Positions 27,318 through 63,293 of a stretch of 64,000 nt of DNA are shown in pieces. The notes below the pieces were generated by a model that made no database searches, was not told where the DNA came from, and worked only from the letters and a program-made list of their open reading frames with translations. Origin of the DNA: Acidimicrobiaceae bacterium (lineage in GTDB: Bacteria; Actinomycetota; Acidimicrobiia; Acidimicrobiales; Aldehydirespiratoraceae); the NCBI GenBank assembly GCA_028820455.1, contig JAPPJC010000049.1, positions 39,168-103,167 on the forward strand. The letters run 5' to 3'. Each line of letters starts with the position of its first letter. Position 1 is the first letter of the stretch. Both the position numbers and the translations under genes were made by a program.

Positions 27318-28214
27318 TCAAACCTCTGAAACGGCACCCAACCAAATGGTTTGACCGATGACTGCAAGGGAGGCCTTATGGGTCTCATAGTCGGGCATCA
27401 GACGAGCGACGATCCTCCAGAAGCCGGGAGTGTGGTTGGCTTCACACAGATGGGCTAGCTCGTGGACCAGGACATAATCGATGAGACCGGGCGGAAGCTG
27501 GAGGGTGGCCCAGTGTATGTTGATACGCTGACCGTTGCTGGCGGGACGGACTGAGCCCCAACGGTAGCCGAGATCCCGGACTTTGACCTCCACCGTTTCT
27601 TCACCTAACCGGGCAGCCCAGGGTCGGATGCGACGCTGGAGCCACCGACCGCCTACTTCGGTGTACCAGCGACGCATCAGGGCAGGGCCTTCATGGACTC
27701 GGGCGACAGGCAGGTGGAAACGCCCTGCTTGTAGACGAACGCCAACCGTGCCGTTAGTGTCTGCGTCGCTGCCGCTGTTACCAGAGACGTTGACACCGAT
27801 GCTGCCTGCACCGCTGCTGTTGCCAGAGACGTTGGTGCTGGTACTGTTCGCGTCGGTGTTGTCGGTACCTGATGTGAGGGTCAGGCGGTAGTTGCGTCCT
27901 AGGTAGACGAAACCTTCGCCTTCTACGAACTGTTTGACAACCGGTGGACCGGTGAGGGCGTCTTTGTCGATGAGTTTTCGGTGGATCCACCCGCTTTTGT
28001 CTTTCACGAACCGCTGGGCCCGTTCGACTGTCACGGTTGGTGGGGCTTTCAAAGTCAGCGAAGCGTCGCGTTCCACTACTATCTCGATGGTTTTGCGGCC
28101 GCTGGAGAGTGAGACCTCCAACATCAAGTCACCCACGACCAGAGATTGCAGATCCCGAAGTAGATCGGAAGGGGAAGCCACAACGGCGTTCATCGCAACT
28201 GGCTGACCGTGCAA
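27318..28214 (-). CDS. DUF45/YgjP-like (M48-type) zinc metallopeptidase
   Basis: HELAHLCEANHTPGFW (HExxH) near the C-terminus. Sits directly downstream of hsdR, a common genomic association. Carries an Asn/Ser/Gly/Thr low-complexity insert. Confidence 0.8.
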   Translation of the reverse strand: MHGQPVAMNAVVASPSDLLRDLQSLVVGDLMLEVSLSSGRKTIEIVVERDASLTLKAPPTVTVERAQRFVKDKSGWIHRKLIDKDALTGPPVVKQFVEGEGFVYLGRNYRLTLTSGTDNTDANSTSTNVSGNSSGAGSIGVNVSGNSGSDADTNGTVGVRLQAGRFHLPVARVHEGPALMRRWYTEVGGRWLQRRIRPWAARLGEETVEVKVRDLGYRWGSVRPASNGQRINIHWATLQLPPGLIDYVLVHELAHLCEANHTPGFWRIVARLMPDYETHKASLAVIGQTIWLGAVSEV

Positions 28215-28239
28215 TCCGACGTGGGAGCCACAGCAACAG

Positions 28240-31200
28240 TCATCGCAGGCGATACCGGTTGGCTTTGGTTAATTCCAGCAGTTCTACGGCTAGCTGGTCG
28301 AGGCTGTTGTAGTTGAACAGGTCGCTGGCGTCGAGGGTTCGTTTGATGTGTTTGCGGAGGCCGTCTTGTTTGGTGGGGTTGTCCCAGAAGCCGACCACGC
28401 GAACAGTGCGGTGGATCTCGGTGGTGAGGCCTCCGGTGAGGTTGATCAGCCTGCCAGCTGTGTCGGGAGCGGAACTGGCGACCCTTTCGGCCATGACGTT
28501 GTGGAAGGGCAGCTCGGTGGTCGGGTCGAGTCCAGTGTGGTTCTCGTCGGAGTGCCCGGCGTTGACTTCTTCGACCAGTTCGTGGAACTCGAGAGCGATC
28601 TGTTCCCAGCGGTCTTTGAGCCGTTCCAGGATCTCGTCGACACGTTTGGAGAGCTTCCGGAAGTAGACCGGGTCCTCGTCTAGGTGCTCACGAATGTGGA
28701 AGCGTATGGCGTGTTCCATTTCCGACGCTTTGGCACGGGCCGAGCTGATCTCGTTGACGTGGACGGCGAACTCGGGGGCGGTGATGCGTACCGGTTCGAT
28801 CTTGTGGCTGAGGTCGAGGGCTGTGATATGGCTGTCGAGTAGCCGGCGGACTTTCTCCTTGTACTTGTGGGGGTCGAAGTCACCGTCGGGAGTGTCCCTG
28901 TAGCGACGACGAACCCTAATTTGTATCTCACCGAAGAGACCGACGTCATCGACGAAAGGCAATGTCTGCGGTCTGGGTAGCACAGTATCGAACGTACCCA
29001 GGAAAACCCGCAGTGCCTCGTCGAACTCCGCTCGGAGTCTCTCGTCGGCCAGCAACTGGACGCAGGCTTCGATATTGTCATCGGCGGCGGCGGGTTCCAC
29101 ACCGTGCTGCACGAAGAGCTGGCGGATTCTCTCCCGCTGCGGGTCGAGTTTGTCGATCTCCGAGGTCAGCGGACGTAACGCTACGTCGACGTCAGGGTCG
29201 AGCCAGCCGTCGTCGCGACTGTAAGCTGCCAGGGCCTGAGTGAGTTGGGCGGACACTCCGTAGTAGTCGACGACCAGCCCGTGTCTCTTGCGGGGCGCGG
29301 TACGGTTGACTCGTGCGACGGCCTGCAGCAGCTCAGCTTCCTGGATCAGCCGGTCGAGGTAGATCGCCTGAGCCCCGGGGGCGTCGAACCCGGTGAGCAG
29401 CATAGATTTCACGATCAGCAACGCGAGCGGACTGTACTTGTCGTCATCAGCGGGCCCTAGCGGCAGCTTGAAGCGAGCGATGCTATCCTGTTGGGACTGT
29501 TTGGCAGTCCACTGCGCGTAGCGTGGAGGGTCATTATGGTCACCGGAGATGACGGGAGCGAAGTCCAGGGCACGGATCATGTCGATCCGATCAGCAGCGG
29601 CACGCAGAAACGACTCGTCGTGATCGGACGACCCAGCAGGTACTCCACCTGAGGAACGACCCGACAACCCATCGGACAGCCCGCCTGATTCTAAAAACTG
29701 TTCCACCTCGGCGACTAGTTCGTCGCGGGCTTCGTTCAAGGCCTCGTGGTATCGTAGACACGCTTCGCGGCTTGTCGCAACGACCATGGCTTTGAAGCCG
29801 TCGGGCATCACCGTGGAGACGTAGTGGCGTAGCATGTTTTTGGCTTTGGCTGTGATCAGCTCGGGGGCTTCGAGCACCTGAGCGGCGGTGGCGTAACGCC
29901 TCTGGAGTGTGCTGCGCTGGTCGTCGCTGAGTCCGTCGAACCACCGCAGGAACAGGTCGTCCATTCTGGAGGCACCCCTCACGGCTGCGTCGGTGGTGCG
30001 GCCCTCGTAGAAGATGGGCACCGTGGAACCGTCGGCTTCGGACTGACGTAGGGTGTAGCGGTCGAGGTAGTTGCCGAAGATTTCCATGGTTTTCTTGCGT
30101 GCGCCCATGATGATCGGCGTGCCGGTGAACCCGATCCGAGCCGCGTTCGGTAAAGCGTTCATCAGGTTGGCGTGCAACAGCGAAGCCTGAGAACGGTGGG
30201 CCTCGTCGATCAGCACCAGGATCTCACCCGCCTCGTTCAACGTCTCGAACCGTTCGGCATCGCTCAGGCCGCTGCTGCTGGGGCTGGGGTTGCCGGTGTC
30301 GCGGTATTTCTGGATCATCGCCATCACCACGCCCGGCCCGGGCCGACTCAGCAGGTCACGTACTTCGGTTGCGTTGCGGGCAACTCTGACAGTCTCACCG
30401 GTGAGCGCAGCGGTGTCCCCCAACTGCTTTTCGAGGTCGGTGCGGTCGGTTACCAACACTATCTTGAACCGACGCAGATCGGGATGGCTGCGCATGGCCC
30501 GGATCAGAAACACCATGGTGAGGCTCTTGCCCGACCCCTGCGTGTGCCAGATTATCCCACCCCGACGGTCGATGTGGCCGTCAGCCACCCTAGTGTCGCC
30601 CTCAATCAGTCGTTTCGATGCCTTGTGCACACCCCGATACTGCTGGTAGCGGCCCACGATCTTGACAGAGCGGCCTGTGACTGATCCCACGAACAGCGTG
30701 AAATGCCGGACGATGTCGAGCAGCCGCTCCGGCGTCAGCATCCCCACAACCAGAAGCTCCTGCTGGGTGACTGCCTCAACAGGCTTACCCCGCGAAGCCG
30801 CGACCTCGGCGACGGTGGCAGGATACGAATCTTTCCAGGCCATGTAATGCTCCGGCAGAGCCGAAAACGTCGCTGCCTCGGCTCGCTCTCCGGTGGTGGC
30901 CACAGTAAACTGGTTCGTCCAGAACAGCTGCTCCGCCCCCTCGACGATCTCACTGTCACGCTGGTTGGCGTAACGACGGAGCTGATCCACGGCGTCGACT
31001 ATGGCACTATCAGGTCCAGGCGATTTGGCTTCTATCACTACCATCGGGATCCCGTTGACGAACAGCGTCACATCAGGCCGAATGTCGGGTGCCTGCCCCG
31101 GTGTCGCCACCGTGAACTGCGACACCGCAAGAAAGTCGTTGGCCTCCCAGTTGTCCCAGTCGACATAGTCAACCGTCTGATCCCGCCCGCCATCCCACCC

Positions 31201-31593
31201 CTCAAGCCCGGCAACAGTGACCCCACCAAGCAACAACCCTGTAGACCGGCGGTTGGCCTCCAACAGTTTCACCACCCCTGCTGGCATCGACCGAAGCTCC
31301 GCCACCGCCGCCTCAACCCGACCCGCATCAAGCCAAGGCTCACCGTCAGGGCCGGGGTTGATTTTCAACAATGCTTCCCTGAGACGCCCCTCCAGCAGCA
31401 CATCCCGCTCCGACGACCGGAAATCAACACCCCTCGAGTCCCATTCGGACCAGATCAGTGTCTCCCACCCGAGAGAGCGCAAATGTTCCAGAAGCGGCTG
31501 TTCCACCTGCTCCCATTCCAGTGAACCGAGGGAGGAGCTGGGAAGACGGTTCGTGAGCCGCTCCACGTGTTCCCGTTCCGGCTGAGAGGTCAC
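28240..31593 (-). CDS. hsdR: Type I restriction enzyme R subunit
   Basis: ORF 28240..31749. Helicase motif I GIIWHTQGSGKSLTMVF, DEAH box VLIDEAHRSQ, typical N- and C-terminal HsdR regions. The likely start is GTG 31593, with AAGGTGG 8 nt upstream (alternative 31605). Confidence 0.93.
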   Translation of the reverse strand: MTSQPEREHVERLTNRLPSSSLGSLEWEQVEQPLLEHLRSLGWETLIWSEWDSRGVDFRSSERDVLLEGRLREALLKINPGPDGEPWLDAGRVEAAVAELRSMPAGVVKLLEANRRSTGLLLGGVTVAGLEGWDGGRDQTVDYVDWDNWEANDFLAVSQFTVATPGQAPDIRPDVTLFVNGIPMVVIEAKSPGPDSAIVDAVDQLRRYANQRDSEIVEGAEQLFWTNQFTVATTGERAEAATFSALPEHYMAWKDSYPATVAEVAASRGKPVEAVTQQELLVVGMLTPERLLDIVRHFTLFVGSVTGRSVKIVGRYQQYRGVHKASKRLIEGDTRVADGHIDRRGGIIWHTQGSGKSLTMVFLIRAMRSHPDLRRFKIVLVTDRTDLEKQLGDTAALTGETVRVARNATEVRDLLSRPGPGVVMAMIQKYRDTGNPSPSSSGLSDAERFETLNEAGEILVLIDEAHRSQASLLHANLMNALPNAARIGFTGTPIIMGARKKTMEIFGNYLDRYTLRQSEADGSTVPIFYEGRTTDAAVRGASRMDDLFLRWFDGLSDDQRSTLQRRYATAAQVLEAPELITAKAKNMLRHYVSTVMPDGFKAMVVATSREACLRYHEALNEARDELVAEVEQFLESGGLSDGLSGRSSGGVPAGSSDHDESFLRAAADRIDMIRALDFAPVISGDHNDPPRYAQWTAKQSQQDSIARFKLPLGPADDDKYSPLALLIVKSMLLTGFDAPGAQAIYLDRLIQEAELLQAVARVNRTAPRKRHGLVVDYYGVSAQLTQALAAYSRDDGWLDPDVDVALRPLTSEIDKLDPQRERIRQLFVQHGVEPAAADDNIEACVQLLADERLRAEFDEALRVFLGTFDTVLPRPQTLPFVDDVGLFGEIQIRVRRRYRDTPDGDFDPHKYKEKVRRLLDSHITALDLSHKIEPVRITAPEFAVHVNEISSARAKASEMEHAIRFHIREHLDEDPVYFRKLSKRVDEILERLKDRWEQIALEFHELVEEVNAGHSDENHTGLDPTTELPFHNVMAERVASSAPDTAGRLINLTGGLTTEIHRTVRVVGFWDNPTKQDGLRKHIKRTLDASDLFNYNSLDQLAVELLELTKANRYRLR

Positions 31594-31687
31594 AACGGGT
31601 ACCACCTTACAGGGTGATCGTTGATCTTCCAACAAAGGCCATTTTCTACGCATCCTCCCCGCAGATGTACTATAACACACGAAACAC
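31491..31687. repeat. hsdR 5' end/leader (copy 1) fused to a vapC 3'-end scar
   Basis: 31491-31645 is about 88% identical by eye to 32576-32733. On the + strand, 31633-31675 reads KGHFLRILPADVL*, matching the last codons of vapC at 33379-33421 (KGHPLRILPADAL*). Confidence 0.8.
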
Positions 31688-31901
31688 GGCGGGCTCCACG
31701 GTGGATGCGACTTTAGACACAAGCGGCTATAAAATGACAAACGTGACAAACGTGACCGAACCGATGGGGTTTACGCCTATGATACGACGTCTACGTTTTG
31801 ACGAGCGTCGGTGGGATATCGTTGTCGACGGAAGACATCGACATCAGAATAGGCTTCCCATCGGTGTTCAGACCTTTAAGGTTGCATTGCCGGCCATCTG
31901 A

Positions 31902-32168
31902 ATGTACGATCTTCATATGATTGAGATGGCAGTGAGCGAGGCACGAAACCGGCTGGCCGAAATGATTGAAGAGTCTCGTCGGTTGGGTGAGCCGATCTCG
32001 ATAACACGACACGGCCGACGGGTTGCTGTCATCGTGGATTCTGCTGCTTTCGACCGGCTTATTGGCAGCTTGGATGACATCGAGGATCGCCGTGAGCTTG
32101 ACATCGCGCGAGCCGATGACGACTACGTGCCCTGGGATAAGGTCAAGGCTACGCTGGAACTTGAGTGA
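31902..32168 (+). CDS. Phd/YefM-family antitoxin
   Basis: MAVSEARNRLAEMIEESRRLGEPISITRHGRRVAVIVDSAAFDRL is the typical Phd/YefM fold signature. 4-nt overlap with the downstream toxin. Confidence 0.85.
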   Translation: MYDLHMIEMAVSEARNRLAEMIEESRRLGEPISITRHGRRVAVIVDSAAFDRLIGSLDDIEDRRELDIARADDDYVPWDKVKATLELE

Positions 32169-32428
32169 GCCGATACACCGTTGTGATCGCCCGGCGGGCA
32201 ATCAAATCGATTGCCAGGTTGCAACGTAAGGAACAACAACGGATTCGAGTGGCAATAGATCTGCTGGCCACCGAGCCGCGACCCCCTGGTAGTGTCGCTC
32301 TCACAGGTGAGGAATCCGTGTACCGAGTGCGCGTCGGTGACTACCGGATCTTGTATGAAATCATTGACACTCGCTTGGTGATTCAGGTGATACGTGTTGG
32401 GCATCGCCGTGATGTCTATCGATCCTGA
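32165..32428 (+). CDS. RelE/ParE-family toxin
   Basis: 87 aa. ...YRVRVGDYRILYEIIDTRLVIQVIRVGHRRDVYR is the typical RelE/ParE C-terminus. GTGA overlap with the antitoxin. Confidence 0.85.
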   Translation: MSRYTVVIARRAIKSIARLQRKEQQRIRVAIDLLATEPRPPGSVALTGEESVYRVRVGDYRILYEIIDTRLVIQVIRVGHRRDVYRS

Positions 32429-32575
32429 CAAAGCTGACCATAACGACACTCATCCATCGTAGCAGGGTCTTGTATGCTCATCATCGGATTTAATAGCAAC
32501 AGTGTATGTCGCGCCGAGCTTCAATCGACGAGTAGCTCCCGATAAGCCCCACGACTGAGCTAGAAACTCTGGTAG

Positions 32576-32733
32576 GAAGCGGCTGTTCCACCCGCTCCCA
32601 TTTCGGCGAACCGAGGGAGGAGCTGGGAAGACAGTTCGTGGGCCGCTCCACGTGTTCCCATTCCGGCTGAGAGATCGCAACGGGTATCACCTTACAGGGT
32701 GATCATTGATCTTCCAAAGACCCGGGCCATTTG
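32576..32733 (-). repeat. Duplicated hsdR 5' end/leader (copy 2, truncated)
   Basis: The minus strand reads ...SQPEWEHVERPTNCLPSSSLGSPKWERVEQPL, parallel to hsdR's SQPEREHVERLTNRLPSSSLGSLEWEQVEQPL. No hsdR body follows. Confidence 0.8.
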
Positions 32734-32780
32734 CAGACCTCTCAGCCGAACTTGTAACAATATATGCTACAATATATTGT

Positions 32781-33008
32781 ATGAAGCAGACAACGATATA
32801 CCTACCGGACGACCTCAAACGTAGACTGAACCGGATCTCCCGGCAAGACCGCCGAACAGAGGCATCCATTGTGCGCGAAGCACTCGACGACTGGTTGAAA
32901 CACCGAGAGGTGGAACCCACCACACCTCTGTTCGCACAGGGATGGGGGGATCCCACACTAGCTGAACGTGTGGACGAACTCCTATCCGAGACAGGCTTCG
33001 GAGAATGA
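32781..33008 (+). CDS. Ribbon-helix-helix (CopG-type) antitoxin
   Basis: MKQTTIYLPDDLKRRLNRISRQDRRTEASIVREALDDWL. 4-nt overlap with the PIN toxin. The tracked ORF starts at 32706, but ATG 32781 fits the RHH N-terminus. Confidence 0.8.
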   Translation: MKQTTIYLPDDLKRRLNRISRQDRRTEASIVREALDDWLKHREVEPTTPLFAQGWGDPTLAERVDELLSETGFGE

Positions 33009-33421
33009 TCCTCGACACTAGCCTATTGTTAGCCGCTTTCGTCCCGGACCAGCAGATGCACGAGGCTTGCGCGCGGATTCTCGTTTCAGCCCGCCCGAGG
33101 GTTGTGTCACCGCTGGTGCTCGCAGAACTCGACTATCTGACAGCCCGACTTGCCGGTGTGGACGCTGAACTTCTATTGCTTTCAGAGTTGTGCTCCGGCG
33201 CGTACGAGTTGGCGGCATTCACTTTTGACGATCTGGAGCGTGCGAAAGACCTGGTGAAACGCTACCGAGATCTTCCGCTGGGCCTGACCGACGCCTCACT
33301 TGTCGTACTCGCAGACCGGTACGGAACAGACACCATCGGATCGCTCGACCAACGACATTTCCGCGTCGTGCAGTCACTCAAAGGCCACCCTCTACGCATC
33401 CTCCCCGCAGATGCGCTATAA
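33005..33421 (+). CDS. vapC: PIN-domain toxin
   Basis: 138 aa. MILDTSLLLAAF (first acidic residue), LVLAELDY, LGLTDASLVVLA, SLDQRHF. Confidence 0.85.
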   Translation: MILDTSLLLAAFVPDQQMHEACARILVSARPRVVSPLVLAELDYLTARLAGVDAELLLLSELCSGAYELAAFTFDDLERAKDLVKRYRDLPLGLTDASLVVLADRYGTDTIGSLDQRHFRVVQSLKGHPLRILPADAL

Positions 33422-33653
33422 CGCACGAGACACCTTGGAACTGCAATGTAAACAGTGATCTCAACAGACTCACCGGATTGAAGCATTACTCCAGCGTAAC
33501 GTCACATCTGGGCCATGACGTTTCTGCATGTAACTGCACCGGTCGCTATTCGGTGGTGATTTCCAACAAGTCGTTAACGAGTTGTGCTGTTTCGTCGTGC
33601 TGTGATCGTATAACGTTTGTGAAGGTCTCGACTCATCCACACCATCAACCGGG

Positions 33654-33941
33654 TTGGGCATAGACTTGTGTGCTTCACCCCAGTCGTTCTCGTCAGATGG
33701 TCGGCATGCAGGTGTGGAGATTTCAGGATTAGGAGCAGAGGAGCTAATTCAAACCAACGACAAAGCCAAACGCTTTCACCGGACTCTGCTCGAAGAATGG
33801 GCCTACATACGAAACCAGGCCTCACAAACACAACGCACAACAGTCCACAAAGGCTTCCTGCACTACTACAATCACCACAGAACCCACAGCGCACTCAAAT
33901 GAGCCATACCCCCCGCATCCACCATCGGATACAACCTATGC
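33654..33941 (+). mobile_element. IS481-like transposase 3' remnant
   Basis: IQTNDKAKRFHRTLLEEWAY...YNHHRTHSALK is the C-terminal end of an rve integrase core. No N-terminal part. 33789-33941 is repeated in inverted orientation at 41130-41278. Confidence 0.7.
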
Positions 33942-34236
33942 GAAACACACAATTAGATACTCGTTCCCGGCATCCGCAGTCAAGCAGAAATCCTTTATTA
34001 AACTATTAAACCTTGTTTTCTTTGAGGAATCTGATCCAGGCTCGGGTTGGTATACCCGCCAGTGGACGGTTGAGCATGTTGTCGACCCAATCGTTCATGA
34101 ATCCTATCCTTGCAATGCGGCCGAAATTGCCTCCACCATCGTAGGCCGGTCTATCGGACGTATGACTCCGTTGCCGATAGGGTGCATTGATCTCCGGCGA
34201 AGCGATACTGCGATCCGATTTTGACTTGCGACGATA

Positions 34237-34785
34237 TTACCACCAATGGTTACGGTGCTCAGCGACATTACGGGCCGACCAGAGGCCTGGGGAATCGACG
34301 AGTGGAACACCAGAAAGTACATTCGAGAGATGCCAAGGAACTACCACCAGTAGATCCCAGGACGTGCAAGCCGCTGGTGTTACCGTGTAGCGGAAGCTTG
34401 GCTCAGCTTCCTTTGCTAGCACATACCAGCTTTTGAGTTCAATGCCCAACGCCACATCAAAGTCATCGGAGGCTAGTTGCCTTCTCAGCAGCACATCCGG
34501 GAAGGTCTGGGCTTGCCGGTCAAACCTATACAGAGGCCACTCGTCGTTGGGATCCCACACGTCTCGAATCCGATTCAGCGTGTTGACGACTTGTACCTCA
34601 ATAGTAGTTCCCAGCATAGTGTTCAGTGCGAACAGGTCACTAGCGTCAATCCCTTCAATGTTCGTTGACGAGCTAAAGTAGCCTGGAAGAGCCATAAGTG
34701 CTTCCCTCACACGATGCATCAAAGGCGTGCGCGGGTCATCAGGATCAGGTGTTCGATCGATGGGCTGAGCAGGAATCTTGGCCAC
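34237..34785 (-). CDS. Putative type II restriction endonuclease (PD-ExK)
   Basis: 182 aa, 10 nt downstream of the methyltransferase on the same strand. FPDVLL...x...GIELKSWY fits a PD-(D/E)xK core. Confidence 0.55.
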   Translation of the reverse strand: MAKIPAQPIDRTPDPDDPRTPLMHRVREALMALPGYFSSSTNIEGIDASDLFALNTMLGTTIEVQVVNTLNRIRDVWDPNDEWPLYRFDRQAQTFPDVLLRRQLASDDFDVALGIELKSWYVLAKEAEPSFRYTVTPAACTSWDLLVVVPWHLSNVLSGVPLVDSPGLWSARNVAEHRNHWW

Positions 34786-34795
34786 GGAACTACGT

Positions 34796-35815
34796 TCAGG
34801 CGTTTGAGGTTAGCGGGTGTTGTTCGCTGACGGCTTTGAGTCGTTCAACCGCAAGATCCGCGAAGTGTTCAACCAGTTCCGCTGCGTATCCGTCTCGCCC
34901 GAGTTCCACCGCTGCGACCAGCGCGCTGCACAGTCCGCCGAAGGGCTCCCACACCATATCACCAGGGACGGTAGCTGCTGAAATGATCCGGCGCATGAAT
35001 TCCAGAGGCTTCTGATTCAGATGCACAGCGGCGTTGCGTCCCGGCCGATGCACACGAGGGGCAGAACGCACACCGTTGCCTTTGTAACGTTCGCCACCGT
35101 TCAGCGGCGGCACCGACCAGACGTTGGTGATCCCATGGCTGTGACTCCACGTGCCGCGCAACTGCGCCCAATCGCTCAAGGTGGCCGGAACTGTCCCATC
35201 AAGTGAGTAGTATGGCCTCCCATCGGGTCTTCCATGTTCGTTGGCGTAAGCCACAAGACGCTGCATCATCTCGGGCGGCGGAAGATACCACAGCCAGTCC
35301 TGAGTCAGATATTTGCGGGTTGCGGCATTGGCCACCCCACAAGCCGCGTTCGCTCTGTTCAACGGCAGCCCGGTACGCTGCCATTCATAACGTAACCATT
35401 GTTTCGCCGACATCGCCCCGCTGGGCGTGTTGAATTCCAATCGACGCCGATAGAACACACACACCTCAGTCACCACGGGAAACTGTCTGATCGTGTCACT
35501 GTTCACGTTGCCCGCGATGTGAGCGACACCTTTGTCCCACACAATGGTCTGCACATATTCCCAGCCGTGGCGTATCAACACTGGATGAACAGTCGCCCAA
35601 CCCAGCTCGGTGTTCCAAAACCACAAGGTCGAAGCCGCTTGAGCGTGTCTACTCCACGATTCCACGTGCGGCTCGTACCAATCGGCCAGGTCATTCGTTG
35701 TGCGAGGATCGCCCGGGAAGCCACCAACACCATAGGCACCGTCGGAGATGATGACCGAAGGCGTAGGCCAATGAGAGTAGGCATCAAGAGCATCACCCCG
35801 AAACACCGACCACAT
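34796..35815 (-). CDS. Beta-class N6/N4 DNA methyltransferase
   Basis: ORF extends to 35989; the probable start is MWSVFRGD at 35815. N-terminal VIISDGAYGVGG sits where the DPPY motif is expected. C-terminal VWEPFGGLCSALVAAVELGR is the AdoMet motif I. VWDKG is typical of the family. Confidence 0.8.
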   Translation of the reverse strand: MWSVFRGDALDAYSHWPTPSVIISDGAYGVGGFPGDPRTTNDLADWYEPHVESWSRHAQAASTLWFWNTELGWATVHPVLIRHGWEYVQTIVWDKGVAHIAGNVNSDTIRQFPVVTEVCVFYRRRLEFNTPSGAMSAKQWLRYEWQRTGLPLNRANAACGVANAATRKYLTQDWLWYLPPPEMMQRLVAYANEHGRPDGRPYYSLDGTVPATLSDWAQLRGTWSHSHGITNVWSVPPLNGGERYKGNGVRSAPRVHRPGRNAAVHLNQKPLEFMRRIISAATVPGDMVWEPFGGLCSALVAAVELGRDGYAAELVEHFADLAVERLKAVSEQHPLTSNA

Positions 35816-36772
35816 GCTTCCTCGGGTGTCCTCTTTGGGGGAGTTCGTTTGGCAAGTGTTTTCCTGTTGAGGACGCTTTTTCCACTGAATCGTCTTTTTG
35901 GGTATCGACTCGGATGCATTTTTCTTCAGTGTGTTTAAATTACTCGACACCTGTCCTATTTCACTTTGCACAAATGGTAGTCTACGCATCTCACCACCCG
36001 TTCACTTTCATTCTTGCCTTTTCAGCGCGACTTACCCGGTGGCGGCGACGTTCGAAGATGAAATCCATATCTGTTCATCCTTATTCTTGCCATTTTACAG
36101 CGACCGCTCCGATTGCTTTACCCGTTCCGGCCATGGCGTTGTCATTCCACAATGTATTATAATATTGTAATCGCAAGCACATATATTTACAATACGTGAA
36201 AATCACTGTAAAATACTAAAATATTTCTAATCCATTGCATATGCAGGTTGCCAACAGTCTGTGAAACGACAAACAATCCGCAGTCGAAGAATTGGCTGCA
36301 AACCAGATGGTGTCGGTGAGTTTCACAGCTGTGCGTGGTGAGTGCTTTGCTATAACACGGCGCACGCATGCGCGTCCAGGGTATTTTCAACTCTGTTGGG
36401 CCGGTCCAGCGTGTCAGGGTTTCACGTAGGCCCTCGTTGTTGGTGAGCCTGTCACTCACGGTTCGTTCCAAGACTGGGTGATACTGCTAGCAGCGCATCT
36501 CGTAGGCGGTTGGCTGTCTTGGTGGCGTCAGCAGCGAGGTCGGTGTCACGGGCGTTGAGTATGCGCAGGTGTGTAAGCATCTCATCTGATGGTTCATGCC
36601 AACTGAGACGATCCGTGTTGCGTCTAGCACAAGATGGAAATCATATGAATAGATATGAAATAGTTGATGACAGCTTCGCCGTTGTGTATACTCCAATCAT
36701 GTTCACTGAAATAGCTCAACAAGAAGTGGGTCTGCTAGCTACAAATAGTATCAAGAAGAGGGAAAAGAAACT

Positions 36773-39022: not shown

Positions 39023-39031
39023 TCTGTAGGC

Positions 39032-41001: not shown

Positions 41002-41129
41002 CTAGTGATTATACATGTAAATTATTATATTACACTATATTATCTACTTAGTTTGTCATTTTGGGTTGTCCGTCTAAGCTCTTGGAGGAGGCTGGTAAGC
41101 TTTACGAGCGGATCATGCCACCAGCCTCT

Positions 41130-42380: not shown

Positions 42381-42399
42381 TGGGTGGTAGTATCGGGTT

Positions 42400-44062: not shown

Positions 44063-44078
44063 TGAAGTTGATGGTCAA

Positions 44079-52856: not shown

Positions 52857-53980
52857 GATTCCGGCTCCGGCAGATCAACGGCGCATGCGCTGAGCAAACC
52901 GATAACTTGAAGGTCTCTGAACACCGATTTGGCAGCATCGCCGGGCGTCAGTGTCTCTGGAAGGGTCAGTATTGACATGTCGGGGTCGTTGGCAGCAATC
53001 GCTGAAACCACAAGACCGTATCCGTCGACGCTGACTTCGCGCTTCGGCCCGATTCGTTCCCAAGCTGTTGCCAAGTCTTTGAACGTGATCGACAGCTCCG
53101 TGCCGATACTGCTGGCTATGGCCTCATCTAGCAGGTGCTCGACCGCTGTCGGTGCTGTTAGAGGAGTCAATCGGCGTATGTCTAGTGCTGTGGCGATCGC
53201 GCAAAGTGCAGGGTCGCTGACGTCGGCATACCGCTCACCGAGCACATCCGAATAGGCTGCAAGATGCCACCAAAGCAGACTCTCTCGAAGCAGTGAAGCC
53301 TCGACAACAGCCCACCGGGCTTTGAGTTGCGCTCGAAGTGCACCTCCCAGCTTCTGGGCGAAGGTTTTCAGTTCGCTATCATCCAGTGAGTCGCTGGTTA
53401 CAACCGGCGGCATCCGCAATTCGTCAATGTCGGTTGACGGTAGCCACACGAGGTCGAGACGCTCCGACACGACCGCATCAATCCGCGATATCTCATCTCT
53501 GACTACTTCCTCCCACCGGCCTACCGACACTCCCAACGCCCTAATGGTTCGAAGTACGTACCAGTTGGCTGTTTCGAGGTCCTCGTCATCTGCCGCTGCC
53601 GTGACCGCTGCTTGGAACGTAATAGCCCGCAGCAGTTCGGTAGGAGTCTCAGGGAAGGCGTTGCGCGCTGAGGGCCACTTGTCCAGCAGACAATTATAGG
53701 CGTAGTTCAAGACTGGATCATCGACCGGTGCTGTCGACTCGTCGATGGCACGAAGCAGAGCCGCAGCCAGCTTTGATCGACCTTCGCCCGCTAGCCACTC
53801 AGCCATGTTCTGGGCTGCTTCCCCGGCGTGTTTTAGTCGTTGATCATCTTCACCGAGATCACTTAGCAGTCCCGCCCGAAGCAGGTTCAACAGCAAATGG
53901 TTGGTCATCTGATTCCCTTGATTATAAAGCTGTGACTCGGCCACCGCCGAAGTCGCAGTCTGTTTGTGTACATTGTCCAA
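52853..53980 (-). CDS. All-helical protein, first gene of the GTPase operon
   Basis: 375 aa, Leu/Ala-rich, no catalytic motif. ATGA overlap with the downstream GTPase. An alternative start is MTNHLLLNLL at 53908. Confidence 0.7.
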   Translation of the reverse strand: MDNVHKQTATSAVAESQLYNQGNQMTNHLLLNLLRAGLLSDLGEDDQRLKHAGEAAQNMAEWLAGEGRSKLAAALLRAIDESTAPVDDPVLNYAYNCLLDKWPSARNAFPETPTELLRAITFQAAVTAAADDEDLETANWYVLRTIRALGVSVGRWEEVVRDEISRIDAVVSERLDLVWLPSTDIDELRMPPVVTSDSLDDSELKTFAQKLGGALRAQLKARWAVVEASLLRESLLWWHLAAYSDVLGERYADVSDPALCAIATALDIRRLTPLTAPTAVEHLLDEAIASSIGTELSITFKDLATAWERIGPKREVSVDGYGLVVSAIAANDPDMSILTLPETLTPGDAAKSVFRDLQVIGLLSACAVDLPEPES

Positions 53981-54442
53981 GTATATGTAGTCGTGTTAGC
54001 ATGTCCGCAGTCTATCCTGGATTCATCATGGGGATGCTCAGGTGTGAGGTTCACGGACACGTCCTGTCAGCTCGGTTCTCAGGTGTACCGCGATCTTCGG
54101 CAGGATGAAGCGGGACTTCTTTGGCCGCACGATTGTGTTCCTGTGCGAAACCTCTAATCCTGTGCTTGGCGAAACCTGTACCTGGTTACGACGTAAAGGC
54201 TGGATACAATGCAGCGGTCCGCCTCACGGCCATGATCAAGCACTTGACTTGAACCATGTCAGCGCAGCCGTAGCCAACGAAGCGAGCCTGGCAGTGGCTG
54301 TTCCGAGACGCCGAGCGGTTGTGCTCCCTATGTCATTTACCATGCAATTCATCAATCTTCATCTATATCCACTCATTAAGATCGCGATCTGCTAGCATGA
54401 TCACTCCTTCCAGATAAACCATGTCTTTTCTAAGAGATTCAT

Positions 54443-55384
54443 ATGTATATAGTACATTCAATGGAAGATCGGATGTGCATTGAAGTACTTCTTGAAGAAT
54501 CAAATACGCTGGTTGAAATTCTTGACATAATCGTAGAAGACATGTCCGATCCACGTCTACAGGCGATAGCTGACTCAGCCTGGTACCGCCTCGGATCAGT
54601 CAATGTTCTCATCCGAGATCAAGGTGGAGATGCGGTAGCAGCGTGCCTAGCTCGGGGACTTATAGAGCAAGCAGCATATTGGGATTGGACACTAGCGACA
54701 GGAGTTGGTGTTGATCACCTTGATCGGTGGGCGGTGCTTGAACTGGAGAACTTGTCGCGTCTTGCTGCTGAAATGGATGATGAGGTGTGGCTTGGGTGGT
54801 TAGTACCACCCAGTCTGACTTTAACAGTATCTTCAGGGCCAGCTATTCCGAAGAATCCTGGAGATGCAGTTCGACGACTCGGATCGGGTTTAGACGGGGC
54901 TGTTCTCGGGCCGTTGCAATTTGAGGGCCTGCTGTCAGCGTACCGGATCCTTGATGTGCTTGCACATGGCAACTATATTGGTGCCACAATCCTCTCAGGG
55001 CATCCAGATTCCAAATTGCCTGACTGTCTTGCCGCTATAGCTACGCATTTAGCGGCTGCTAGTGCTACTGCTGTGATGTTCGCTCTCGTCAATGAAGAAT
55101 CGTGTCTGGACGCGGTAGCAGCACAATTCAAGCTCGTGGCCACAACAGCATCTGCGATCCATGGTCTTAAATCGCAATTGTCATTTGTGACGCGGCGACT
55201 GCCTCATGCAAAACGAACACAGCCAGTTGACACAACTTCATCTATATCGCGAATGCCCACAGCTACCGAAGACATGACGAGACTAGGTATTGAGTTTGTA
55301 GATGCAGCTGATCATCTTGTCCAAAGCGTTTTAAATAGTGCTAACCACACAGAATATTGCTGGTGCATGGCTTCCACTGTATAA
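54443..55384 (+). CDS. Hypothetical protein, tandem paralog 1
   Basis: 313 aa, divergent from the GTPase operon. LARGLIEQAAYWDW aligns with AARMLLEDGARWSW of the next gene. AT-rich relative to its flanks. Confidence 0.6.
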   Translation: MYIVHSMEDRMCIEVLLEESNTLVEILDIIVEDMSDPRLQAIADSAWYRLGSVNVLIRDQGGDAVAACLARGLIEQAAYWDWTLATGVGVDHLDRWAVLELENLSRLAAEMDDEVWLGWLVPPSLTLTVSSGPAIPKNPGDAVRRLGSGLDGAVLGPLQFEGLLSAYRILDVLAHGNYIGATILSGHPDSKLPDCLAAIATHLAAASATAVMFALVNEESCLDAVAAQFKLVATTASAIHGLKSQLSFVTRRLPHAKRTQPVDTTSSISRMPTATEDMTRLGIEFVDAADHLVQSVLNSANHTEYCWCMASTV

Positions 55385-55391
55385 CTTTGAG

Positions 55392-56018
55392 ATGGCACAG
55401 TCAAATCTGTTAGTTATTCGTAATAGTTTAGAAGGAAGCCTGGGTAAAGCACTTATGCCAATTGCTGCACGCATGCTGCTTGAGGACGGTGCTAGATGGA
55501 GCTGGTTCAGACACAGTGCGGGGAATGAGATGAGAGGCGAGTCTCTAAAAGCGTTGGTCAATGATGGGATAGACTATCGAGATCGAATAGCTGCGAATCT
55601 TAAATCGGACGGAGTACCTCAGTATATCATTGACCAACTCCTCGGCACTGCCCTCGAAGTTTCTCGCCCCGAATCGGCGACAATACCAACAGCAAAATTA
55701 GATGACATGCTGCGCGGTGCTTACCCTAACCTATCATACATTGATACAACACGAGCTATGTACAGCATATTATCACAATTTGTGCATGCTACACCTATCT
55801 CAAATTGGCATATTCATCGAGATATATTTCCTTCACTCTCAGCACCCATTTATGCTGTATCATTAGAATCAGCTGTTAGAGGATTCGAGCGCATAGCATC
55901 AATTACTCTCCCAATGATGGGTATCGATCTTGAATCCCTAGAGCAACCGTTGAAGAAGATGCGGAAACAGTGTGCTATGATAATTCAGCAGGCAATCCTC
56001 TATCATTTCCTAGGATAG
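55392..56018 (+). CDS. Hypothetical protein, tandem paralog 2
   Basis: ORF 55338..56018. ATG 55392 lies just after the upstream stop. Shares a helical N-terminal motif with the preceding gene. Confidence 0.6.
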   Translation: MAQSNLLVIRNSLEGSLGKALMPIAARMLLEDGARWSWFRHSAGNEMRGESLKALVNDGIDYRDRIAANLKSDGVPQYIIDQLLGTALEVSRPESATIPTAKLDDMLRGAYPNLSYIDTTRAMYSILSQFVHATPISNWHIHRDIFPSLSAPIYAVSLESAVRGFERIASITLPMMGIDLESLEQPLKKMRKQCAMIIQQAILYHFLG

Positions 56019-56021
56019 ATG

Positions 56022-57253
56022 GGGGATTATAGGGTTAGGTTGACGGAAGCTCGTATGCTGGGTATGTTCATTGTATGGGCAATTCACCAGGAAAATCGTA
56101 TAGGGGTGGGATCAGTCTGTTACGGTTGGCGGTCATGTTTCCCGATGAGCGAGCCGCTCGGAATGGTTTGAAGGTAGTATCTGGCCGGATGGTAGAATCT
56201 GCCCACGTTGTGGTAGTGGCAAGACTTGCGAGGCGAGTCACGCTAAGATGCCTTACTGGTGCGGTGCTTGCCGTTCCTATTTCAGTGTCAGGACGAACAC
56301 GGTGCTGGAATCGTCGAGGCTGCCCCTGCTGAAATGGGTGTATGCCGTGTATTTAGAGGTGACTAGCCTCAAAGGTGTGAGCTCCATGAAGCTACACCGC
56401 GACATCGATGTGGCCCAGAGCACTGCTTGGCATATGCTGCACAGGATACGCAAGGCCTTCAAAAACGACGACCCCCTGTTCAGTGGTATAGTCGAAGTCG
56501 ACGAGACGCACTTCGGTGGGAGAGAACGCAACAAGCACCAGTCGCAGCGCAGCGGTAAGCGCGGCCCGAGTGGCAAGGCAACCGTAGTCGGAGCGAGAGA
56601 ACGCAGCACGGGACGTGTGGCTGCTGCTAGTGTGCCCGATACCACGGCTTCCACGCTATGCGGGTTCGTGGACACCCACGTCGGGAGCAGGGCATTGTTG
56701 ATGACGGATGGGACGCACGCTTACAGCGGTTATAATCGCGTTGTCGTGAACCACAGCGTAGGAGAATACGTGAGAGGAATGGCGCACACCAACGGTATCG
56801 AGAGCTTCTGGGCTATGCTCAAGCGCGCTTACCAGGGAGTGTACCATCACATCAGCCGCAAGCACCTGCACAGGTACGTGGGCGAGTTCGCCAGCCGCCA
56901 CAACCTGCGGCCGCCGGATACGGTGGATCAAATGTCAACATTAGCTCGGGGCATGATCGGTAAACGCCTCACGTACGCGGAGCTGGTAGCATGAAACGAC
57001 TATACCGTTCTGATTGCAAAGCCACAACAGACGAACTGTCCGATGAAAGGGGTGAAAGCGGACTTGAACCATCTGGAACCGCCATTCAACGACTCAGGTA
57101 GCGTGTATCCGATGATATTCGACACCGAGACCGTCACAACGCAGCAGAAAACACCACCGCGCATCCAGGAGTCGAAAAATACACGAAACCACAACCCGCA
57201 AACCCAAACACGCAACCCCCACAACACCCCGTCAACCTAACCCTATAATCCCC
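56022..57253 (+). mobile_element. IS1595-family insertion sequence
   Basis: 25-nt terminal inverted repeats GGGGATTATAGGGTTAGGTTGACGG (56022-56046) and its complement (57229-57253). 8-bp direct duplication GATAGATG at 56014-56021 and 57254-57261. Confidence 0.9.
56075..56994 (+). pseudogene. IS1595-family (ISXO2-like) transposase with apparent frameshift
   Basis: The N-part MGNS...MFPDERAAR is in frame 2. The Zn-ribbon and DDE body (EWFEGSIWPDGRICPRCGSGKTC...VEVDETHFGG...) is in frame 1, tracked as 56248..56994. The switch is at 56159-56161, a short G run, so it could be a sequencing error. Confidence 0.75.
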
Positions 57254-57464
57254 GATAGATGGCTCTCATATCTTTATGGAGGACTCTGTGACTGCGGTGA
57301 ACTTCTTCTATGAGCTCCTACGTCACATTCTCGCACTGGATGGCTCACCCTACTACAACCCAGATACAATGTCCACGGTTATCACAGCGAGCAACGTCTT
57401 CCTAATCCAGCAGAGCAACTGCTCCACAACGGCTGCTCCGCCCGCCCCTTCTCAGGGTCTGATG

Positions 57465-58637
57465 TCATGCCGCGACCGTCCTCACCCGGCCGGAAAGGAG
57501 GTCGTCTGCGAGGCCAGCGCGGAGTTTCTGGAGCTTGTCTAGTTGCTGCTGGGTGGCCTGGATTGCATCGTCAGCTGTGTCGAGGATCTCTGCACTACGT
57601 TGTTGTTCTTCTAGTGATGGGAGATGGAGCTTAAGCTCCCCAATTAGCTTTTGATTCACGGATGGTAATGCTCCGATTTGGACAAAGTTCTTGAAATCAA
57701 CAAGCTGCAACCAGCGATATAACCATTCAGTCGAGACAAGCGACGTTGGAATGGCCGCCATCATGTTATTGTCTACGATTGAGTCAACTGTCAATATTCT
57801 ACGTTTGTTGCCGAGTAAAGCAGCACCAACTTTCGCGAATATGACCGAACCGGGTGGAAGAAGTCTCCATCCATATCTTACAGCGACCTCACGTTCGACA
57901 TAGTTGTTCGCGTCTCGCATGAACTTTCTGTTGCCAGATGCATTCATATCGCTTACCTTATAAAATGGGACGGATCCTGTCTGGTTCCCTTGCATATCCT
58001 CGGGAAATCCATGTCCACCCTTAAGAATTGCGACAGCTGCCAGATCAATTGCTGGGCCAGTTGAGCTCAGCACAAGCTGTTCCTGGACGGCACTTGAGAC
58101 GACTTGCAGTTTGGTGATGACATACTCAGTAGTCCGAATGGTTTCGTCAAACGTGTCGAGAATTTCTGCGATACGTTGCTGTTCGTCTAGGGGTGGTACT
58201 GGTACGTGCCAGCGTACTAAGTTCGCTCTAGGTAGATGACCGATACTTGTCTGCCCCGTTAAGGCTCGGAGCAGACCGCGACGTGCGGCATATTCAAAAT
58301 AATATCGCATGAAGAGCGCGCTCACCTTGGCAATAGGACGCAGACGATGGATAGCATTCTGAAAATAACAATTAGACAACTCACCAGACCACAAGGCTGC
58401 TCTTCCTACCTCGCCTCCTTCACAGATAAGCAAGTCTCCCGGTTGTAACCTATAGCACTTGCGTTCTATACCACTAAAGTTCATTGTTCCAAGGTCATCA
58501 ATGACTATTTTTCCCCATTGAACGTTCCGGTTTGCGAGGTACTGATATTGTGGCCCATTATTGGAACCATTACTAAGCATCTTGCCGAGTTGAACCTCAA
58601 ACAGCTGACCCAAAGGCTGTTGTTCCCACTCACCCAT
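57465..58637 (-). CDS. hsdS: Type I R-M specificity subunit
   Basis: Two target-recognition halves, each followed by a conserved helix ([19 protein letters not shown] and [21 protein letters not shown]). ATG 58637 overlaps the hsdM stop. Confidence 0.9.
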
Positions 58638-61035
58638 AACCCAGCCTCTCGAGATGTTCCTGGAGTCGGGCAGTAGCAGCATCTCGTTCAGCTTCGAATT
58701 CTCCCAGAGTTGTGCCGTACTTGTCGATTAGGTTGTTGTACCAAGCGTCGGTTTTGCGTTGGATCTCTGCGAAGTGATCGTCTACGAGCTTTTCGATACG
58801 GCCTCTGAGCACGCCGATCGCCTCTGTCGGGGCATCTGCTTCTTCCATGGCACCGAGAGCATCACGAGCTGCGTCGAGAAGTGAGATATCCAACGTTCGG
58901 ACTCTCGTCTTGAGTAAACGGGACTCTGACTTCATCTGTTTGATCTTGGTAGGGCTCAGAACGTTAGTGTCAGCAGCACCGTCGTCGTTGTTCACTGCTG
59001 TGGCTGCTTTGATTCTGGTGTTGAGGTCGGCTAGTGTGGCGGCCAACTCCGACCTGGATGCGAGCTGCGGACCGGCTAGGAGTTTCACAACAGCCTGATC
59101 GGCTAGGGCCGGAGCGTTCTTGTCGTCTTGGCTGGTTTCAGCGGTGGTCAGCCAGGCTTCAATCACTGCTTTCCATCCTCTACTGACCGCCGTTTTGAGT
59201 TCGTAGAAGCTTTCTTGCCACCAGGTAGCGGATATGCCAGCGGCTTCGAAGCGGTCCATGCCATCTGCCGTCATGCGGTCTGTGAACTTTTCTACGAGCT
59301 CCTGGCGTACTCCGGCGAGGCTGTCGCGTCCGGGCAGGTTTTGCAGCATCGGCTCTACCGTATCGTTCCACCATTGGGGCCAGGGGCTGACCGCGGCCCG
59401 CTGGGACACTGCATCGCTTATGATGCTGTGTGCGGCTTCACGTTCTTGTGGTGATGTGACGTTATGGTGGCACCAGTCGGCGTAGCCGTCACCCCGGTCA
59501 GTGAACAGGAGAGCGGCATCGAGGCCTGCCTGGTCGTGGAGCTCCTTGGCGGCGTTGATTTCGGCTACTGGCACGCCGCCGTGGAGGTGGGCTCGCACGT
59601 CGTGGGGTTCGGGTGGTGGCGAGTTGTCGGCGTAGCGTCGGATGTTGCAGTTGAAATCGTTTTCGGCTAGCTCTTCTATGGTGACGACTCTGGCGAAGCT
59701 GTCTACGTCGGTGAAGCTGTGGTAGGCGGCGGTGATCTTCTCTTCGTCACGGGGGCGTAGGTGGTTCTGAGCCCGGCCTGCGTAGTAGTCACGGTCGGCG
59801 TTGATGAACAGCACTCTGCCCCGACGACTGGGCGGTTTGGAGCCGGGTGCCCGCAGGATCAGGATGGCAGCGGGGATGCCGGTGCCGTAGAACAGGTTCG
59901 GAGCTAGACCGATCACGGTGTCGAGCAGATCAGCCTCGATGATCTTACGGCGGATCTCACCTTCCGTGCCGCCACGGAACAGCACGCCGTGGGGCATGAC
60001 AGTGGCGACGATGCCGCCGGGTTTGTCGCCGTCTTCGGGTTTGAGCACGGCCAGCATGTGCTGCAGGAACATCAGATCGGCCTTCTTGCCGCCTTCGGGG
60101 GTGTAGCCGTAACGGAACCGCTCGGGGTGGGTGAGCGACGCCTTGTCGTAGTTCTGACTGAACGGCGGATTGGTGATCACCCGGTCGAAACGCTTCAGCT
60201 CGCCACCGCTGACGTGCTCGGGACTGGCGAGGGTGTCATTGTTGCGCAGGTCGGCATCGTATATGCCGTGCAACAGCATGTTCATCTTCGAAATCGACCA
60301 GGTAGTACCATTGTTCTCCTGCCCGGCCAGTTCCAGATTGTTCGGGTCGCCGCCGTTGTCGGCCACATGGTTACGGGCGTAGATCAGCATACCGCCCGAC
60401 CCCGAACATGGGTCGTAGATACTCATACCCTCCTGCGGGTCGAGCAGGCGCACCATCAGCTGCACCACCGGCCTAGGAGTGTAAAACTCGCCGCCCTTCT
60501 TACCCGCAGAATCCGCGAAGTCGCGGATCAGATACTCGTAGGCCGCGCCCAATAGGTCAGGGAACTCGAAATCGGAGTTGCGCAGCCGGTAGCGCGAGAA
60601 ATGGTCGATAAGGTTGCGCCACTTCTTGTCCGACACGGTGGTGGTGCCGACCCGCCGGTTGAAGTCTATATGCTGCAACACCCCCTCCAACGGCGGGTTC
60701 TCCTGCTCCAACCCACTAAGAGCCTTATTGAGTCCATCCCCTACTTGTCTGTGCAGCTCGTTCTGCAGATACTCCCACCGGGCCTGCTCGGGCACGAAAA
60801 ACGCCTCATTGTAGAAGTCCCGGTCGCAGGCCCGTCGCTCGGCCTGCTCACGCGAACGTCCTCTGGCCATCTCACGCTCTATGAGCCGCTGACGTTCCTC
60901 ATCGAACACGTCGCTGGCTCTCTTCAAGAACAGCACTCCGAAAATGTACTCCTTGAACTCGGAGGCGTCCATTTTACCCCGCAGAATATCCGCCGCCGTA
61001 AACAGATGCCGCTCAAGCTGTCGTAACGTAAGCAC
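58630..61035 (-). CDS. hsdM: Type I R-M N6-adenine DNA methyltransferase subunit
   Basis: 801 aa. HsdM N-domain (LWxAADILRG-type [23 protein letters not shown]), motif [13 protein letters not shown], motif [10 protein letters not shown]. Long helical C-terminal extension. Confidence 0.93.
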
Positions 61036-63287: not shown

Positions 63288-63293
63288 AGTCGC

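Follow-up and report, generated by a model that had tools for sequence, protein, structure and literature searches.

The window analysed here is a 64,000-nucleotide stretch of an Acidimicrobiaceae genome (G000:C37:39168-103167; genome of 2.4 Mb in 84 contigs, 91.75% complete), and its subject is a type I restriction-modification (R-M) system whose subunit genes stand far apart. Scans of 43 window open reading frames (ORFs) against Pfam, PADLOC and NCBIfam identify hsdM, hsdS, hsdR and a YgjP-like DUF45 metallopeptidase gene, all on the minus strand and in the order M-S-R, at the positions proposed in an earlier note made from the letters alone (Table 1). Between the hsdS stop and the hsdR start lie 25,871 nt, in agreement with the separation of about 25.9 kb given there, and the hsdM-to-hsdR interval measures 27,036 nt. 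The cargo in between comprises 28 called ORFs, 14 per strand, and its G+C content ranges from 47% to 63% by segment.

The locus encodes an HsdM, a two-domain HsdS and an HsdR with an N-terminal nuclease domain and SF2 motor motifs, the features by which a type I system is recognized. HsdM also matches the PADLOC model MTase_I (PDLC03031, E 1.5e-276), and the length of HsdS lies within the 399-511 aa typical of hsdS frames in 24 relatives (one outlier has 163 aa). HsdR contains the domains HSDR_N (PF04313), SWI2_SNF2 (PF18766), T1R_D3 (PF22679) and T1RH-like_C (Pfam), scores 418 bits against TIGR00348 (cut-off 284) and matches PADLOC REase_I with E 8e-119. Its motifs GSGKS, DEAH and TGTP were all found, and it keeps 227 of the 229 columns that are invariant among the 24 relatives, while HsdM keeps 220 of 220. 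Judged by frames, motifs and conserved columns, hsdM, hsdS and hsdR of the window are intact. Translation of hsdR probably begins at the GTG at 31593: matches from relatives open at residue 78 of the longer ORF, and the relatives' own hsdR starts lie five codons ahead of that point. A DUF45 homologue sits after hsdR in related loci too.

Table 1 Features of the split type I locus, in window coordinates, from the peptidase gene to the repeat beyond hsdM
Feature	Position	Strand	Remarks
YgjP-like/DUF45 metallopeptidase	27318-28214	-	PF01863 E 9.5e-49; last operon gene
hsdR	28240-31593	-	1117 aa from GTG at 31593; longest ORF reaches 31749
hsdR 5' end and upstream region	31491-31687	-	sequence reading, self-BLAST
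Phd/YefM antitoxin and ParE/RelE toxin	31902-32428	+	PF02604 E 1.6e-12, PF05016 E 3.4e-12; TIGR01552, TIGR02385
Second hsdR 5'-end copy	32576-32717	-	142 nt, 92% identical to 31491-31632 (self-BLAST)
RHH antitoxin and PIN toxin (VapBC-like)	32706-33421	+	PF01402 E 4.2e-6, PF01850 E 1.4e-13
IS481-family transposase fragment	33654-33902	+	rve_3 E 3.1e-7; NF033577
Possible endonuclease	34237-34785	-	182 aa; REase_II E 5e-6 only
Type II N6/N4 DNA methyltransferase	34796-35989	-	PF01555; PADLOC MTase_II E 7.9e-17
UvrD-like helicase	36773-39022	+	PADLOC PDLC03002 E 1.1e-271; UvrD_C_2; G+C 47%
AAA_14/DUF4143 ATPase (PADLOC candidate PDC-S01)	42400-43674	+	PDLC04790 E 4.4e-73; Pfam
574-aa protein, possibly OLD-like ATPase/TOPRIM	44079-45803	-	weak atlas leads (feature score 0.81, TM 0.35-0.40)
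Isolated hsdS-3'/hsdR-5' junction remnant	46008-46163	-	about 62 nt of S' and about 97 nt of R'
Phd-like N-terminal half	46147-46398	-	PF02604 match limited to residues 1-40; reading frame stops within the S' remnant
GTPase-centred conflict operon (putative), five genes	47556-53980	-	GASH, DO-GTPase2, DO-GTPase1, GAP1-N1+EAD1, PNP_UDP_1+EAD1
Three ORFs	54105-56018	+	96, 313 and 226 aa; G+C 48%
IS1595-family transposase	56248-56994	+	NF033547 E 8.2e-56
Decayed hsdR start	57375-57468	-	about 27-30 codons; boundary at 57375 read by eye; directly 3' of the hsdS stop, ATGA overlap retained
hsdS	57465-58682	-	405 aa; PF01420 (Methylase_S) E 5e-34 in two stretches, the two target-recognition domains
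hsdM	58630-61035	-	801 aa; PF12161 (HsdM_N) E 2.5e-30, PF02384 (N6_Mtase) E 9.4e-98
277-nt repeat, copy A	60814-61090	-	55 nt upstream of hsdM and first 74 hsdM codons
GmrSD-family type IV restriction enzyme	61437-63287	+	GmrSD_N E 1.5e-36, GmrSD_C E 3.5e-24; PADLOC HEC-06, mREase_IV
277-nt repeat, copy B	63286-63562	-	98% identical; truncated hsdM' with promoter-like region

The compact operon of relatives and the junction copies in the window

Comparison with related genomes, as the earlier note had proposed, does reveal the uninterrupted arrangement. The relatives are Acidimicrobiia, many of them from sponge metagenomes; they are not independent, and some loci are one sequence filed twice. 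A scan of one genome per species yielded 57 loci with an hsdR of the window's family, 46 of which show both the 3' end of hsdM and the 5' end of hsdR. In 42 of these 46 only hsdS lies between M and R, with an M-to-R gap of 609-1431 nt. In G016, which belongs to the same taxonomic family and another genus, M, S, R and DUF45 are contiguous, with hsdM (847633-850008) and hsdR (851230-854538) 1.2 kb apart and 69% and 73% identical, respectively, to those of the window. The remaining four loci have gaps of 2264-4513 nt, filled mostly by insertion sequence (IS) elements: an IS481 element inside hsdS in L065, an IS21 element inside hsdS in L041, two IS4-like copies around hsdS in L043, and a tandem duplication inside hsdS together with one AAA_16 ATPase gene in L033. 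The interval of 27,036 nt in the window compares with at most 4513 nt in these 46 loci. The duplication in L033 (7029-8350; 650 nt, 96% identity) may represent a doubled target-recognition half.

Metagenome contigs added 29 further loci, and 15 of the 16 with at least 54% hsdR identity and both ends shown are compact, going by their tabulated gaps; in the exception, L089, S and R are separated by a DUF6338 gene and a small ORF. At class level, seven of 400 further genomes hold the window's hsdR family, all with hsdM within a few kilobases, although at least three of the seven look, by gaps and match patterns, like loci already counted (G519/L041, G163/L044 and G062/L054). The hsdS stop overlaps the hsdR start as (A/G)TGA (GTGA or ATGA) in all 12 compact junctions inspected, and in most of ten loci the called start of the peptidase gene overlaps the hsdR stop. 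From these overlaps, the normal state of the family is a tight, translationally coupled hsdM-hsdS-hsdR-YgjP operon. A decayed relative was also seen in G023 (L027, G023:C1:515000-534999, positions 8768-12476), with a 109-aa hsdM 5' fragment, a 464-aa hsdR C-terminal fragment and an intact DUF45 gene; it lacks hsdS and the 5' half of hsdR.

In the window, copies of the sequence around the S-R overlap recur within the cargo. A junction profile built from 30 compact loci (90 nt of S and 120 nt of R) was searched with nhmmer over the window and 86 loci, and it matches 67 of the 87 targets. Strong extra matches are confined to three targets, the window, L033 and L089, and these are precisely the loci whose S and R are separated by non-IS cargo; the order in L033 and L089 is that of the window: hsdS, a remnant of the hsdR start, cargo, a short remnant of the hsdS end and the real hsdR. 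Weak second matches appear in L071 and L088 (E 0.003 and 0.007), and the IS-bearing loci L041, L043 and L065 give a single match each.

At the hsdS end of the window the match spans 57547-57390 and runs to model position 170, 80 nt into R; the remnant in mid-cargo (46163-46008) covers model positions 29-187 with E 9.9e-17. At the other end, the Phd-ParE pair is flanked by direct repeats that are copies of the hsdR 5' end. The hsdR start itself is duplicated, such that codons 1-13 are followed by 10 extraneous codons and then by the normal N-terminus, in frame throughout; the 60-nt insert at the start preserves the reading frame. These scars are short and visible at the DNA level alone. A tblastn search with proteins of ten relatives (E<=1e-3) found no hsdS remnant near hsdR and no hsdR remnant near hsdS, and recovered the hsdM' fragment only.

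That fragment belongs to a second set of repeats, on the far side of the system. A 277-nt sequence covering the region just upstream of hsdM and its first codons is present in two copies that enclose a gene for a GmrSD-family type IV restriction enzyme. The 55-nt upstream stretch includes a TAGACT hexamer resembling a -10 element, 6 nt before the hsdM GTG, a position that would fit a leaderless hsdM transcript.

Origin of the split and state of the system

The hsdMS pair and the hsdR-YgjP pair of the window most likely constitute one cognate type I system. We base this on the same relatives carrying both halves, on concordant similarity, on shared G+C and on the intact motifs and columns. By homology, M, S and R fall into one complementation family, since the same relatives carry all three as one operon. 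The identities of M and R to 45 relative loci correlate (Spearman 0.85), and L030, L087, L032 and L042 top both similarity lists. The G+C contents of hsdM (59.3%), hsdR (61.3%) and DUF45 (58.8%) exceed the genome value of 50.9%, and on account of this shared elevation the system looks imported as a unit.

The earlier note had named another hsdR next to another hsdMS as the finding that would mark these as two unrelated systems. Other type I genes do exist in the genome, partnered as R-M on contig C79, M-S-R on C12, R-M-S on C40 and S-R on C24, with fragments on C47, C80 and C9. They do not have that effect, as they belong to other families: their hsdR and hsdM do not exceed 39% and 37% identity, respectively, to those of the window. 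The hsdR on C40 (G000:C40:13962-15797) has an in-frame TAA inside the match. The C12 system (L116, G000:C12:1-11000) has an hsdR that runs off the contig end and, between hsdS and hsdR, genes for RloB, an AAA_21 ATPase and an 802-aa RCC1-repeat/SLH protein.

How the operon came apart can be modelled from the scars. Because S and R share four bases, an insertion spares both genes only if the junction is duplicated, and the scars show that such duplication occurred, more than once. A compact operon was most likely opened exactly at the hsdS/hsdR overlap and then filled stepwise with 25.9 kb of unrelated cargo, each step duplicating a short piece of the junction, which left the 3' end of hsdS and the start of hsdR in place. 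GmrSD probably came to lie before hsdM in a comparable way, through duplication of the hsdM promoter region and the first 74 codons. The insertions thus appear to have been serial and gene-preserving, and they were probably homology-driven, arising by recombination within junction sequence. A tandem M-S-R array reduced by deletions was also considered as the source of the scars and ranked lower, given that L033 and L089 show scars around a single small cargo.

One candidate mechanism is a single homologous crossover with incoming DNA that bears both cargo and a piece of the junction; we rate it low, because nothing tested separates it from other duplicative routes. We put forward, equally tentatively, a wider possibility, that the S-stop/R-start junction, and likewise the hsdM promoter and 5' end, repeatedly serve defence cargo as a docking site that needs no integrase. 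DNA with a 70-160-nt copy of the junction and its cargo would enter by one Campbell-type homologous crossover, leaving the cargo between two junction copies and both host genes intact. The flanking repeats could later loop the cargo out as a circle capable of joining a different type I locus. The scars at 57547-57390, 46163-46008, 32576-32717 and 31593 might then record at least two to three successive captures. If this were true, type I operons would be integron-like collecting platforms that depend only on host recombination.

Several observations weigh against the account of stepwise insertion into a system that is still whole. The scars are at most 76% identical (71-76%, over 71-158 nt) to any junction in BLAST comparisons with 86 loci, the resident one included; they may have arisen by in-place duplication or have come with imported DNA, and no donor can be named. 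The S-like remnant just before hsdR is weak, with about 12 of 22 bases matching by eye. The type I system on C12 holds 5 kb of cargo between S and R without detectable junction repeats. The contig derives from a metagenome assembly, and neither breakpoint is bridged by any independent record examined. hsdR is altered at two otherwise invariant positions (A283V and D586N), and a consensus scan upstream of it, of a kind that omits actinobacterial promoter types, gave no sigma-70-type promoter.

The last of these observations bears on the expression of hsdR, which the earlier note had queried. The same kind of scan found one weak promoter site downstream of hsdS, and among the sequencing runs listed for 27318-33500 none is of RNA. 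Co-transcription of hsdR with hsdMS is very unlikely, because half of the 28 intervening ORFs lie on the opposite strand, among them the four nearest hsdR (Phd, ParE, RHH and PIN), which face away from it. Instead, hsdR and the YgjP-like gene would now form a separate transcription unit, driven from the 308 nt between hsdR (31593) and the divergent Phd gene (31902). Read by eye, this region contains an AAGGTGG site resembling a Shine-Dalgarno sequence 9 nt 5' of the hsdR GTG and a TATAGT -10-like hexamer near 31668; a 55-nt copy of the 3' end of the PIN gene also lies within it. In EcoKI, hsdR is transcribed from a promoter separate from that of hsdMS, and subunits produced apart come together into the enzyme. 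By analogy, we infer that R2M2S of the window still assembles in this way; M2S would still methylate.

An alternative is that the system is being lost, with hsdR-YgjP silent or uncoupled and hsdMS persisting as a methyltransferase only, for genome protection or epigenetic regulation. The S-R translational coupling seen in relatives is gone in the window, which together with the promoter scan, the two substitutions and the decay of the same family in G023 would favour such a course. However, hsdR retains its full 1117-codon frame, all checked helicase motifs and nearly every invariant column, the insert at its start is in frame, signals resembling a ribosome-binding site and a -10 element precede it, and separate hsdR promoters are normal in other type I families. 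We therefore regard loss as unlikely.

It is far less probable that the split is an assembly artefact, in which the 112-kb contig joins two strains or loci inside the repeat-rich cargo. The fragmentation of this metagenome-assembled genome and internal repeats of 142-277 nt at 86-98% identity invite that suspicion, but the repeats within the cargo are 86-92% identical and usually resolvable by assemblers, and a misjoin in mid-cargo would leave both breakpoints real, with non-hsdR DNA after hsdS and toxin-antitoxin (TA) genes before hsdR. Logan contigs of four runs, compared with 27000-46999, are short pieces, and none bridges the hsdR start or joins hsdS to hsdR; the many joints among these contigs were set aside as lying within conserved parts of hsdR or having short sides. 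An independent run from another study, X2, contains near-identical pieces of hsdR, Phd-ParE, VapBC, the methyltransferase and the helicase, with 0-6 differences per piece (records 1, 4, 5 and 7). The same run departs from the window beyond 33516, which counts on the side of an artefact. One X2 contig follows 32548-33516 with 2 differences, after which come about 750 nt unlike the window, pointing to a structural variant immediately past the PIN gene in a different population.

Least credible is the idea that hsdMS and hsdR-YgjP are orphans of two unrelated partial systems sharing one defence island. The genome's several other type I systems and fragments, and the extra hsdM' fragment and S'-R' junction piece, which show that more than one copy or allele of the family passed through the locus, lend it some colour. 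Yet both halves are of one family with the same closest relatives and a G+C about 9 points above the genome, a decayed hsdR start follows hsdS while hsdR bears a duplicated one, and the best paralogues reach only 39% (R) and 37% (M), although at 91.75% completeness the genome may lack a further copy.

Contents of the interval and its surroundings

Going from hsdR towards hsdS, the cargo begins with the Phd-ParE pair, divergent from hsdR, followed by the RHH-PIN pair, an IS481 fragment, a type II methyltransferase with a weakly matching endonuclease, and the UvrD-like helicase. Small ORFs of no assigned family, an inverted IS481 fragment, a Phd fragment, the DUF4143 ATPase and the 574-aa protein come next. 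The junction remnant is fused to a Phd-like half gene, of which a 91% identical copy lies at 41669-41936, and beyond it are the GTPase operon, three ORFs that match no known family in Pfam, PADLOC or NCBIfam, and the IS1595 transposase. The inverted IS481 partner lies at 41040-41354 on the minus strand, and the repeat arms (33788-33941 and 41130-41279) are 92% identical. The GTPase operon comprises five consecutive minus-strand genes with Pfam E-values of 3.8e-29, 1.1e-42, 2.4e-61, 9.8e-13 and 1.4e-13, a set (GASH, DO-GTPase1/2, GAP1-N1 and EAD1) that we take to be a GTPase-centred conflict system.

Most of the cargo named in the earlier note could thus be recognized by family matches: the TA modules (with Phd fragments besides the two pairs), the helicase, the ATPase, the GTPase operon with its five co-linear families, and the IS elements. 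For its type II R-M pair, the methyltransferase is well supported and the endonuclease match is weak (REase_II E 5e-6). The TOPRIM protein fared worse, as the 574-aa product has no match in Pfam, NCBIfam, PADLOC or PDB sequences and only weak OLD-like leads point that way.

DNA searches with 31594-44000 and 44000-57464 found no shared block in 301 genomes of the order, in which only single-gene matches of 64-79% occur, to the DUF4143 ATPase, Phd-ParE, the methyltransferase and IS pieces. One of these searches matched 48 genomes; among them, G235 is flagged as unpublished and enters that count only.

Internal repeats are common in the cargo. Direct repeats at 41669-41936 and 46157-46428 (273 nt, 91%) interleave with a second pair at 43862-44059 and 46826-47160 (198 nt, 86-92%, with a 138-nt insert in the second copy) in the order A-B-A'-B'. 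The contents of the A-B units differ, one enclosing the DUF4143 ATPase and the other a 93-aa ORF, as if the flanks had been conserved and the contents swapped. At 40367-41001 lie two short minus-strand ORFs (128 and 83 aa) that overlap each other and resemble a TA pair of no assigned class; the 83-aa ORF has a weak YlcI/YnfO-like match, and a 92% identical DNA copy of the segment lies at G000:C37:22876-23292, 16 kb to the left of the window. Full-length or near-full-length paralogues of the DUF4143 ATPase, 26-64% identical by tblastn, are found on at least 11 contigs of the genome, and fragments of the IS1595 transposase are scattered across at least 14.

The island extends past hsdM with the GmrSD gene, a second DUF4143 ATPase and a second helicase. 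The latter two lie in the segment that follows the window (L028, G000:C37:103168-112611): the ATPase is again of the AAA_14/DUF4143 type, and the helicase has 746 aa and is 35% identical to that of the cargo. A UvrD-like fragment and an RCC1-repeat protein are encoded there as well. On the opposite flank, window positions 1-27150 consist of several diverged copies of the same gene sets, with direct and inverted repeats of 140-355 nt at 60-90% identity and repeat families spaced by about 4.7 or 9.4 kb. ORFs of 260-460 aa in this region match no Pfam family except for a weak Extensin-like_C hit (E 0.0015).

Relation to known systems

Type I loci are known sites of embedded defence genes, as the earlier note had stated, and the published work includes the cases of DarTG2, TgvAB and PrrC and a survey of embedding. 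Sponge symbionts are described as rich in R-M and TA genes (PMC5649159). Embedding has been used to discover defence systems, and how cargo enters without damage to the host operon is not explained in the papers examined. The present locus carries the largest nested cargo among the roughly 60 loci of the family examined, with a clear compact ancestral form for comparison, and together with the scars this form offers a concrete and testable model of insertion that preserves the flanking genes.

The closest counterpart is the RRDM (RptR-RMS-DarTG-M48) island of enteropathogenic Escherichia coli (EPEC) E2348/69, where DarTG2 lies between hsdS and hsdR at what is called a potential recombination hotspot (PMC12255303). 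Both loci share the order hsdM-hsdS-cargo-hsdR-metallopeptidase. They differ in that the RRDM cargo is one TA pair in a seven-ORF island whose promoter is repressed by RptR, whereas the window has 25.9 kb and 28 ORFs on both strands, with GmrSD and an hsdM' fragment upstream of hsdM. No DarT or DarG family occurs among the Pfam, PADLOC and NCBIfam matches of the cargo ORFs, and junction scars do not feature in the accessible description of RRDM (PMC12255303).

In Vibrio cholerae VPI-2, TgvAB is embedded in a type I R-M cluster (PMC11411939). As in the window, this puts a GmrSD-related type IV system together with a type I system, a pairing that targets modified and unmodified DNA in complementary fashion. 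TgvAB is a pair of genes inside the cluster; the window instead has a single-chain GmrSD before hsdM, on the opposite strand and between the 277-nt repeats.

Payne et al. (2024) used 'guilt by embedding' to search for defence genes in Hma, BREX, DISARM and type I R-M systems (10.1101/2024.01.29.577857). The window, like their cases, has defence cargo between genes of one type I system, and models of PDC-S01, a PADLOC candidate family, and HEC-06, a PADLOC Hma-embedded family, match two genes at the locus. Their survey allowed at most three genes per gap for Hma, and 96.7% of embedded genes had the orientation of the host system (10.1101/2024.01.29.577857). With 28 ORFs, 14 per strand, over 25,871 nt, the window would probably not be scored as one system under rules of that kind. 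Surveys that tolerate no more than a few same-strand genes between components would miss split systems such as this one, counting them as orphan methyltransferases and orphan hsdR genes.

Smaller cargo between hsd genes is long familiar. The rloA and rloB genes of Campylobacter type I loci are reportedly classical examples. PrrC in the EcoprrI locus is functionally tied to the R-M enzyme that surrounds it (PMC12707154). These cases involve one to a few genes, and the C12 system of the window's genome likewise carries RloB and an AAA_21 ATPase. EcoKI differs in another way: its genes are adjacent and its separate promoters native, whereas in the window's family separate expression would be a secondary condition. 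The literature searched yielded no type I operon split on such a scale and no junction duplications around embedded cargo. Set beside these systems, the locus is an extreme variant of a known form of embedding, and the new detail that it adds is a set of duplication scars that preserve the host genes.

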